A DNA stretch of 32,012 nucleotides from Escherichia coli (GTDB lineage: Bacteria; Pseudomonadota; Gammaproteobacteria; Enterobacterales; Enterobacteriaceae): NCBI RefSeq assembly GCF_003334385.1, contig NZ_QOWN01000052.1. The stretch is one strand, 5' to 3'. The notes beneath the pieces were generated by a model. That model saw nothing but the letters and a program-made list of their open reading frames with translations. It was not told where the DNA came from and did no database searches. Of the stretch, positions 18,485-18,731 are shown in pieces (position 1 is the stretch's first letter; each line of letters starts with the position of its first letter). The position numbers and the translations under genes were made by a program.

Positions 18485-18662
18485 ATCGTATTCCCATTTG
18501 TAATAGACAAAAAAAAGAGAAAAGTAAGCCGCCCTTTCAGGTGGATTACTTTTCTCAGGTCTCTAGTAATTGAAATAATAAATAACATGGAAAGCAGAGG
18601 TGTTGTGTGAGAGTAATCACGCTTCTGCTTTTTAAAATTATTTGACAATACGAATATCACAC

Positions 18663-18678
18663 TGTGATTACGATCACA
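18663..18678. promoter_or_regulatory. Candidate CRP binding site in the divergent yqcE / ygcW intergenic region
   Basis: TGTGA ttacga TCACA matches both CRP consensus half-sites exactly with 6 bp spacing; a TTGACA hexamer lies at 18642..18647. Confidence 0.55.
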
Positions 18679-18731
18679 TTAGCAGTTATGCCCTTATGCT
18701 AAAAATTATCTCCAGTTACCAGAGATAATGA

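Follow-up and report, generated by a model that had tools for sequence, protein, structure and literature searches.

Twin putative CRP-dependent promoters and leader attenuators between yqcE and ygcW of Escherichia coli, with YgcP as a candidate GlpP-family antiterminator

Background

In Bacillus subtilis, the protein GlpP together with glycerol-3-phosphate prevents the termination of transcription directly downstream of the glpD, glpFK and glpTQ promoters, as recounted in passages of two papers (PMC9604022 and PMC10573289, citing Holmberg and Rutberg 1992 and Glatz et al. 1996, 1998). The present work concerns a locus of Escherichia coli which appears to combine control of this kind with activation by CRP, the cyclic AMP (cAMP) receptor protein. 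The locus is the spacer between the divergent genes yqcE and ygcW in a stretch of 32,012 nucleotides (contig NZ_QOWN01000052.1 of assembly GCF_003334385.1), which is called the window throughout and supplies the coordinates used below, together with ygcP (24305-24880, - strand), which encodes a member of the PF04309 “glycerol-3-phosphate responsive antiterminator” family and is proposed here as a trans-acting antiterminator. The yqcE/ygcW region is 100% identical to that of E. coli K-12 MG1655 over the 501 nt queried, and the window is K-12-like.

Two further described systems bear on the locus. In BglG/SacY antitermination, the classical form of attenuation in E. coli sugar operons, which acts through the ribonucleic antiterminator (RAT), a short antiterminator hairpin that shares bases with the 5' arm of the terminator is stabilized by a substrate-responsive RNA-binding protein, and the arrangement considered here is similar. 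Class II CRP promoters of the galP1 and melAB type have CRP centred at -41.5 and, in many cases, an extended -10 element; the promoters described below resemble them in a consensus box over the -35 position, the lack of a recognisable -35 hexamer, and a TGn extended -10 element 21 nt downstream of the box.

An earlier inspection of the same DNA (the original prediction) had singled out a perfect-consensus CRP site in the spacer, accompanied by an overlapping inverse copy and a TTGACA hexamer, and had proposed that cAMP-CRP controls one or both of the divergent operons. The analysis presented here points to a more elaborate arrangement, in which twin CRP promoters feed leader attenuators that are most likely opened by YgcP; we assign this reading as a whole a probability of roughly 0.72. 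No description of such a twin-leader attenuator system was found in the searchable literature.

Results

Intrinsic terminators and short leader RNAs

An intrinsic terminator stands in the 5' untranslated region (UTR) on each side of the spacer, between the promoter and the first gene. In the ygcW leader it occupies 18730-18778 on the + strand, with a 19-bp stem at 18730-18771 and a run of nine T at 18770-18778, and in the yqcE leader it occupies 18509-18556 on the - strand, with its stem at 18556-18517 and a run of eight U at 18516-18509. The folding energies are -34.2 kcal/mol (ygcW) and -21.6 kcal/mol (yqcE), with z-scores of -5.9 and -3.4, and the alignment supports both structures.

Published RNAs end at these T-runs. 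Romero et al. 2014 list an RNA of 73 nt on the ygcW strand, ecr2774 (2898315-2898388), as a “potential novel sRNA” (small RNA; PMC4681348 Table S5), and the parts of that paper dealing with these transcripts also give a Northern-confirmed RNA of 63 nt on the yqcE strand, ecr2775 (2898527-2898590), with Class I transcription start sites (TSSs) at 2898384-2898388 for ecr2774 and at 2898527/28 for ecr2775. In the same parts the RNAs are filed as simple stem-loops, “perhaps REP-like” (resembling repetitive extragenic palindromes), with no link drawn to CRP, attenuation or ygcP. A K-12 coordinate K corresponds to window position 2917098 - K, a conversion anchored on the label IG2898371_2898613 of Maciag et al. 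(243 nt, window 18485-18727), so that ecr2774 covers 18710-18783 on the + strand, with TSSs at 18710-18714 and a 3' end at 18783, and ecr2775 covers 18508-18571 on the - strand, with TSSs at 18571/18570 and a 3' end at 18508. Each 3' end falls just past the T-run of the corresponding leader, and TSSs predicted from the sequence at about 18712 and 18572 agree with the mapped ones. The RNAs ecr2774 and ecr2775 are accordingly reinterpreted as terminated operon leaders rather than as sRNAs.

The longest ygcW open reading frame starts at an ATG at 18728 (286 aa), inside the leader and 2 nt before the terminator stem, and contains the whole terminator. This ATG is evidently an older annotated start of ygcW, because the intergenic label cited above ends at 2898371. 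Support for the current start, at 18804 (261 aa), comes from the mapped 3' end of the RNA at 18783 and from a GGAG at 18793-18796.

An alternative hairpin that overlaps each terminator

Each transcript starts at a heptamer (AGUUACC or AAUUACU), or at most 4 nt upstream of it, and the heptamer is complementary to the first bases of the terminator 5' arm. The candidate hairpin that results, P1, therefore overlaps that arm and is an alternative to the terminator. In the ygcW leader (18714-18742, + strand), AGUUACC at 18714-18720 pairs with GGUAACU at 18736-18742 around the loop AGAGAUAAUGAGAAA, and in the yqcE leader (18544-18571, - strand), AAUUACU at 18571-18565 pairs with AGUAAU(C) at 18550-18544 around the loop AGAGACCUGAGAAA. 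The loops are 14-18 nt long, GAG-rich, and of the form AGAGA-N3-4-GAGAAA.

The pairing is retained across relatives. Positions u2-u7 of the upstream strand pair with a6-a1 of the terminator arm in 96-100% of 95 distinct leaders. For the pair u2:a6, on which the search pattern placed no constraint, 66 leaders have G:C and 27 have A:U (98% paired); pairing of the same base a6 with its partner in the terminator is seen in only 33%. On an alignment of 68 leaders made with MAFFT, P1 is 93.9% paired, compared with 86.6% in shuffles, and shows 42 double-change cells, compared with 12.5 in shuffles; neither value was reached in any of 500 shuffles. Pairing collapses to 15-53% when the register is slid. 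Fourteen leaders with a 3-nt insertion after the heptamer are mis-registered by MAFFT; they were placed by anchoring on the motif instead, and the formal helix test excluded them.

The nascent RNA folds into P1 with -6.4 kcal/mol in the ygcW leader and -1.4 kcal/mol in the yqcE leader, and the terminator is favoured over P1 by 15-19 kcal/mol. Because the terminator is so much more stable, termination is the default state, and a factor is needed to hold P1 in place. The short RNAs are seen in LB medium and in M9-glucose, which matches termination by default. Attenuation within the leaders is accordingly regarded as very likely. An attenuator of the leader-peptide type, which is mediated by ribosomes, was considered and rejected, as only about 16-20 nt precede the terminator 5' arm. 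When positions 17000-20000 were compared with Rfam at E <= 1, the sole match was Listeria rliE, which, at 24.9 bits against a gathering threshold of 90 (E 0.37), is at chance level.

Two inverted modules, each with its own CRP box

When the + strand from 18650 is aligned with the - strand from 18634, the two sides of the spacer are seen to be inverted paralogues from the CRP box through the terminator. Each module of about 150 nt consists, in order, of a CRP box, a 21-nt unconserved spacer, a TGnTA extended -10 element, the leader, the long hairpin, a run of eight or nine T, a ribosome-binding site and an ATG, and the two modules share the leader motif CA(G/A)TTAC(C/T)-AGAGA-N3-4-GAGAAA(G/A)GTAA.

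CRP site 1, TGTGATTACGATCACA, lies at 18663-18678 (centre 18670.5, about -41.5 from the TSS cluster of the ygcW leader) and matches the consensus at 10 of 10 half-site positions, with TGTGA at 18663-18667 and TCACA at 18674-18678. It is the one exact match to TGTGA-N6-TCACA in the window, where 0.02 are expected from dinucleotide-preserving shuffles (any exact match occurred in 2 of 100 shuffles). With one mismatch allowed, the sole further CRP-like match in the window is TGTGAGAGTAATCACG in the + strand reading, at 18606-18621, 57 bp from site 1 and in the same intergenic region; 0.96 one-mismatch matches per window are expected by chance. Read on the - strand this is CRP site 2, CGTGATTACTCTCACA, which matches at 9 of 10 half-site positions and whose centre, 18613.5, is at -42.5/-43.5 from the TSSs of the yqcE leader.

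The extended -10 elements are TGcTAAAAA at 18697-18705 (+ strand) for the ygcW promoter and TGtTATTTA at 18579-18587 (- strand) for the yqcE promoter. In both, the hexamer starts 29.5 nt from the centre of the corresponding CRP box, which corresponds to CRP at -41.5 when the hexamer is taken as -12 to -7. The mapped TSSs place site 1 at -39.5 to -43.5 and site 2 at -42.5/-43.5, which are class II positions. It is likely that both promoters are activated in the class II manner, the dependence of each individual promoter on CRP being predicted from the sequence. Class III synergy between the sites was considered and not adopted; from each TSS, the other site is at about -98/-99, out of phase by roughly half a helical turn.

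A 13-nt inverted repeat, AAAGCAGAGGTGT and ACGCTTCTGCTTT at 18591-18603 and 18619-18631 (85% complementary), brackets the box of site 2. It lies upstream of the mapped - strand TSS, and so outside the yqcE leader. The ygcW/yqcE spacer (window 18485-18803) was also flagged as H-NS-associated by Shimada et al.

Published evidence for CRP, and the accessory elements of the original prediction

That CRP binds site 1 is virtually certain and is already known. Its identical 16-mer lies under a CRP ChIP-seq (chromatin immunoprecipitation with sequencing) peak assigned to ygcW/yqcE in enterotoxigenic E. coli (ETEC) H10407 (PMC4287617), a Footprint-seq preprint (2026) estimates a dissociation constant (Kd) of 1.7 nM in vitro and labels the site “novel”, meaning absent from RegulonDB (PMC12871828), and the site was ranked second genome-wide as a phylogenetic prediction by PhyloScan in 2007 (PMC1794230). 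In addition, yqcE-ygcE is among the “novel and validated” Crp-activated units of a 2021 study that used carbon-source transcriptomes and electrophoretic mobility shift assays (EMSA; PMC8085971). The EMSA, footprinting and ChIP checks that the original prediction had called for have therefore largely been carried out by other groups, with CRP binding found, and the CRP site alone adds little. For site 2, no separate binding data were found in the published literature, the ChIP-seq and Footprint-seq tables showing only site 1.

The sequence elements named in the original prediction are all present, with TCACAC at 18657-18662, abutting TGTGA, and TTGACA at 18642-18647 (+ strand), and its divergent gene assignment is right (yqcE at 17207-18484 on the - strand, ygcW at 18804-19588 on the + strand). 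Its proposal of cAMP-CRP control over a secondary carbon-source cluster fits both the published binding and regulation and the geometry of boxes and TSSs, but is incomplete as an account, since both transcripts terminate in the leaders 63-73 nt after initiation and CRP is therefore insufficient for expression. The perfect site, which had been offered for one or both operons, serves the ygcW promoter, while yqcE has its own near-consensus site at 18606-18621.

The two accessory elements did not hold up as supporting features, since both lack conservation within Escherichia. Of the five other Escherichia loci fetched, four have TTGATA in place of TTGACA, which is kept only in L005 and is absent in other genera, and the TCACAC inverse copy varies even within Escherichia. 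Both elements are probably incidental. Shimada et al. had proposed TTGACA-16-TGTGAT as a pattern-based guess at the ygcW promoter following a peak of RNA polymerase holoenzyme in the spacer, obtained by systematic evolution of ligands through exponential enrichment (SELEX); no mapped TSS matching a TTGACA promoter appears in the TSS-table passage of PMC4681348. TTGACA as a -35 element and TCACAC-TGTGA as a second overlapping CRP element were thus rejected, being unconserved within Escherichia and having no fitting TSS. Of the two matches returned by a generic promoter scan, TTCTCA-16-AATAAT and TTCTCA-18-GATAAT, neither corresponds to a mapped TSS; the latter is the same string that Shimada et al. 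guessed for yqcE.

Conservation of the modules

Sixty-four loci, from Escherichia to Serratia, Pantoea and Erwinia and including Firmicutes, were fetched with YgcP as the probe. With a profile built from the two E. coli modules, a divergent pair is detected in nearly every enterobacterial locus, and rearrangements of the cluster leave the modules in place directly upstream of the orthologues of yqcE and ygcW. Among 95 module instances (60-odd genomes, orthologous or paralogous), the CRP box retains at least 8 of 10 half-site positions in 91, and in 88 the distance from the centre of the box to the TGnTA hexamer is 29.5 or 30.5 nt. Outside the conserved half-sites, variation is free in the N6 spacer, in the 21-nt gap and in the flanks. 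Both half-sites of site 1 are kept in all enterobacterial loci that have the module, and site 2 is conserved as CGTGA-N6-TCACA in the Enterobacteriaceae and as TGTGA-N6-TCACG elsewhere.

The centres of the two boxes are exactly 57 bp apart in 24 genomes of Enterobacteriaceae and 56-58 bp apart in three more, and the 41 bp between the boxes are almost wholly diverged in spite of this spacing, so that the spacing is constrained and the sequence is not. A distance of 57 bp is about 5.4 helical turns, which places two CRP dimers on roughly opposite faces of the DNA. Outside this family the distance is 36-37 bp in Rahnella and Ewingella and 75-246 bp in Serratia, Pantoea and Erwinia, and because of this variation each box is taken to work with its own promoter rather than as one of a fixed pair.

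The median number of places with the leader per E. coli genome is two, namely these two, so the putative regulon is just these operons; this genome-wide count is the only unbiased figure for co-occurrence. A third copy of the module upstream of ygcN/ygcP was looked for in the window, and none was found. In Limnobaculum eriocheiris (L032, 13888-13953), the ygcW-yqcE spacer contains a single hairpin with a run of nine A on one side and of nine T on the other, which has the look of a bidirectional terminator; it has no recognisable CRP box or upstream heptamer, and may have arisen from the two modules by degeneration or fusion.

YgcP, its gene cluster and distant relatives

Residues 12-184 of YgcP match the full PF04309 model (1-173) with E 1.6e-62. 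Its relatives in the PDB are 3kts and 1vkf, of which 3kts is the closest (E 1e-27). A gene for a YgcP homologue, and hence a PF04309 protein, is present in all 66 loci examined, the leader co-occurs with it in every lineage examined, and the Firmicute orthologues of the YgcP subgroup are 54-59% identical. Within the cluster, ygcP is the only regulator-like gene annotated.

The cluster spans 15702-26449. On one side of the spacer are yqcE (17207-18484) and ygcE (15702-17180), both on the - strand, and on the other ygcW (18804-19588) is followed by ygcU, ygcS, ygcR and ygcQ, all on the + strand, with ygcP, ygcO and ygcN (- strand) convergent with the genes of the ygcW direction. The products are an FGGY kinase, two transporters of the major facilitator superfamily (MFS), a KduD-like short-chain dehydrogenase/reductase (SDR), a GlcD-like oxidase dependent on flavin adenine dinucleotide (FAD), the alpha and beta subunits of an electron-transfer flavoprotein (ETF), and FixC/FixX-like proteins. 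This gene content suggests the catabolism of a small polyol or sugar acid, and the product of the kinase could be the ligand of YgcP. An annotated array of clustered regularly interspaced short palindromic repeats (CRISPR) lies at about 14669-15062 (2270-2663 in L001), between queE and ygcE and a few hundred bases downstream of the yqcE-ygcE operon; it is a known feature of K-12.

The SDR, the FAD oxidase, the kinase and the antiterminator form a core that the cluster shares with Vibrio, Listeria and Clostridium, and an MFS transporter is found in all but the Clostridium locus. Vibrio hannami (L066) has two divergent modules, whose CRP boxes match at 10 of 10 and 8 of 10 positions and lie 30.5 nt from TGnTA. 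The leaders of Listeria, Bacillus, Thalassobacillus and Clostridium stand beside a YgcP homologue without a CRP box, and those of Listeria and Clostridium follow promoters of the sigma-A type with -35 and -10 elements. In Listeria (L056, L058, L059, L061 and L063), the promoter TTGACT-17-TATACT is followed by AGTTGCT-AGAGAATTGAGATA-AGCGACT, a hairpin and a run of seven T, upstream of a ygcU-ygcP-yqcE-ygcW-ygcE operon, while in Clostridium sediminicola (L067) the promoter TTGACA-17-TATATA precedes the leader AGTTACT-AGAG-TATA-GAGGAAAGTAAC, which leads on to a run of eight T, as does AGTTACT-AGAG-CCGA-GAGAAAAGTAAC in Thalassobacillus (L060). Bacillus sp. DNRA2 (L057) has two copies of the leader with changed stem bases, so duplication of the leader arose in more than one lineage; the copies are at about 2874-2935 and 10706-10762, one upstream of a ygcU-like gene and one just downstream of the ygcP homologue and ahead of SDR, MFS and kinase genes. 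Compared with the enteric GUUACU / AGUAAC, the Listeria and Bacillus stems (GUUGCU / AGCGAC) carry compensatory changes. To judge from these comparisons, the attenuator travels with the gene cluster, and the promoter has been adapted to the host's own form of catabolite control.

Discussion

A two-signal model

In the proposed mechanism, a CRP dimer at about -41.5/-42.5 would replace the -35 element and work with the extended -10 element to start transcription in the class II manner, the perfect site at 18663-18678 driving the ygcW-ygcU-ygcS-ygcR-ygcQ direction and the near-perfect site at 18606-18621 driving yqcE-ygcE. By default the terminator would form, and transcription would stop after 63-73 nt and yield ecr2774 and ecr2775. 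In the presence of an inducer, which is probably the phosphorylated product of the YgcE kinase, YgcP would lock P1 and its loop by binding them, stop the terminator from forming, and allow read-through into the operons, so that expression would need two signals, cAMP-CRP (that is, the lack of a better carbon source) and the specific inducer. A role for YgcP as an antiterminator that acts through P1 is judged probable, both the predicted YgcP-RNA interaction and the presumed identity of the inducer being drawn from sequence comparison.

Comparison with described systems

The 5' UTR of B. subtilis glpD, whose leader is a proven target of GlpP, begins with AGUUAAUAAGAACGGUCCUGAGAUGAGGAGAGACCACAGC (PMC9604022 Table S4). 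When the nascent glpD RNA is folded, GGUCCU pairs with AG.AGACC, the start of the terminator 5' arm, around a GAGA-rich loop (glpD sequence GGUCCUGAGAUGAGGAGAGACC); the comparison with GlpP leaders covered glpD, of the three leaders glpD, glpFK and glpTQ. Both there and in the present locus a 5'-proximal strand can pair with the start of the terminator 5' arm and enclose a GAGA-rich loop, a PF04309 protein is encoded with catabolic genes, and catabolite control is layered on top, by CcpA in Bacillus and by CRP here. The present locus differs in that its host is a gamma-proteobacterium, in that its genes are not glp genes but those of an FGGY kinase, MFS transporters, an SDR, an FAD oxidase and ETF subunits, and in that the ligand of YgcP need not be glycerol-3-phosphate. 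By its protein family, its leader terminators and the alternative structure that overlaps them, the locus fits the GlpP type, with RNA binding and a ligand response predicted.

The likeness to BglG/SacY antitermination is one of logic; PF04309 is an unrelated family with no CAT or PRD domains, the RNA motif is different, and there is no evidence of phosphorylation control dependent on the phosphotransferase system (PTS). Unlike class II CRP promoters in general, the two promoters here stand back to back, each with its own box and with centres 57 bp apart, and a terminator follows almost directly after initiation, so that CRP sets only the ceiling of expression.

Several observations weigh against the proposed model. 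A search of the literature on the function of ygcP, or on a GlpP-type system in E. coli, found nothing relevant, and no experiment linking YgcP to the RNAs. The likeness to glpD is one of layout and loop composition, as the sequences cannot be aligned and the helix and loop differ (AGUUACY / AGAGA-N3-4-GAGAAA here). The covariation of P1 represents perhaps four independent events, because the leaders of W-type and E-type form two paralogous lineages of old standing, so that the support which it lends to the helix is to be read as good and not as overwhelming; the P1 of the yqcE leader is also weak alone (-1.4 kcal/mol, z -0.36). The loci were collected through homology to YgcP, which means that the co-occurrence of leader and YgcP is partly built in. 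On the side of initiation, the + strand TSS is a 5-nt cluster, which leaves the position of CRP site 1 between -39.5 and -43.5. In SELEX, the ygcW/yqcE region is bound by RNA polymerase alone (Shimada et al.), and in vitro transcription of the sequence upstream of yqcE occurs in the absence of CRP (Maciag et al.).

Alternative explanations

Two alternatives concern the RNAs. The short RNAs could be free-standing, either as trans-acting sRNAs or as REP-like stem-loops, with CRP controlling two small RNAs and the operons served by other promoters. Romero et al. did list them as potential novel sRNAs of simple stem-loop form, perhaps REP-like, and they accumulate as discrete species on Northern blots, but in every case, across rearrangements and phyla, they lie directly upstream of the orthologues of yqcE and ygcW and in the same orientation, and the TSS-table passage of PMC4681348 holds no other TSS between the leaders and the start codons. 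The covariation of a helix that overlaps the terminator, the presence of two copies per genome rather than a dispersed distribution like that of REP, and the dedicated antiterminator-family gene that travels with the element likewise make free-standing RNAs unlikely. It is still less likely that the element is a protein-independent riboswitch, in which P1 and its GAG-rich loop would bind a metabolite directly and YgcP would have another role. The very high conservation of the loop (GAG...GAGAAA) and the persistence of the element across phyla are what small riboswitch aptamers would also show, but the part that precedes the terminator, at about 30 nt and with one short helix, offers little from which to form a ligand pocket and matches no Rfam family, and every locus encodes a PF04309 protein, a family whose characterised member acts on exactly this kind of leader.

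The other two alternatives concern CRP. A single dimer at the shared site 18663-18678 could activate both operons, in which case the match at 18606-18621 would be fortuitous. Bidirectional activation by one CRP site is established in synthetic constructs, the ChIP-seq and Footprint-seq tables list site 1 alone, and a one-mismatch match is expected about once per window by chance, all of which count for such sharing. Against it, site 1 lies 99.5 bp upstream of the mapped TSS on the yqcE strand, while site 2, at -42.5, is in the same register to its extended -10 element as site 1 and is kept in essentially every orthologous locus, while the distance between the sites ranges from 36 to 246 bp across genera; a shared site is for these reasons improbable, slightly less so than a riboswitch. 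The explanation given the lowest probability of the four is that CRP is a repressor, occluding the -10 element of a constitutive sigma-70 promoter for ygcW formed by TTGACA and TGTGAT. The -35 hexamer of this promoter is perfect and Shimada et al. did propose it after their SELEX peak, but their assignment rests on pattern alone, most Escherichia loci have TTGATA instead of the hexamer, which other genera lack, the sole + strand TSS in the TSS-table passage of PMC4681348 is that at 18710-18714, with none near 18675, and the conserved spacing between box and TGnTA points to activation.

Conclusions

Taken together with the distant relatives, the twin attenuated promoters make it reasonably probable that E. 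coli and most Enterobacterales possess an unrecognised switch of the GlpP family, in which YgcP, in response to a phosphorylated intermediate made by YgcE, would bind a 5' hairpin of about 30 nt (AGUUACY / AGAGA-N3-4-GAGAAA / RGUAACU) and relieve termination in two paralogous CRP-dependent leaders, the RNA-protein pair being shared with Listeria, Bacillus, Clostridium and Vibrio. Such a switch would account for ecr2774 and ecr2775, two orphan “sRNAs” of E. coli, by giving them a function, and would provide the uncharacterised regulator YgcP with a target, and it would place a cluster of ten genes under two-input logic (cAMP-CRP and a specific inducer), with the inducer becoming directly screenable. 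It would also represent a portable attenuator that has been plugged anew into lineage-specific control, by class II CRP promoters in the gamma-proteobacteria and by sigma-A -35/-10 promoters in the Firmicutes.

To our knowledge, the rules by which the PF04309 family recognises RNA are poorly defined even in B. subtilis, and the present leaders offer a compact and phylogenetically supported RNA motif for an antiterminator of this family. If the model is true, it would define the RNA recognition element of the YgcP subgroup and would be the first example of this class of regulator in a Gram-negative bacterium.

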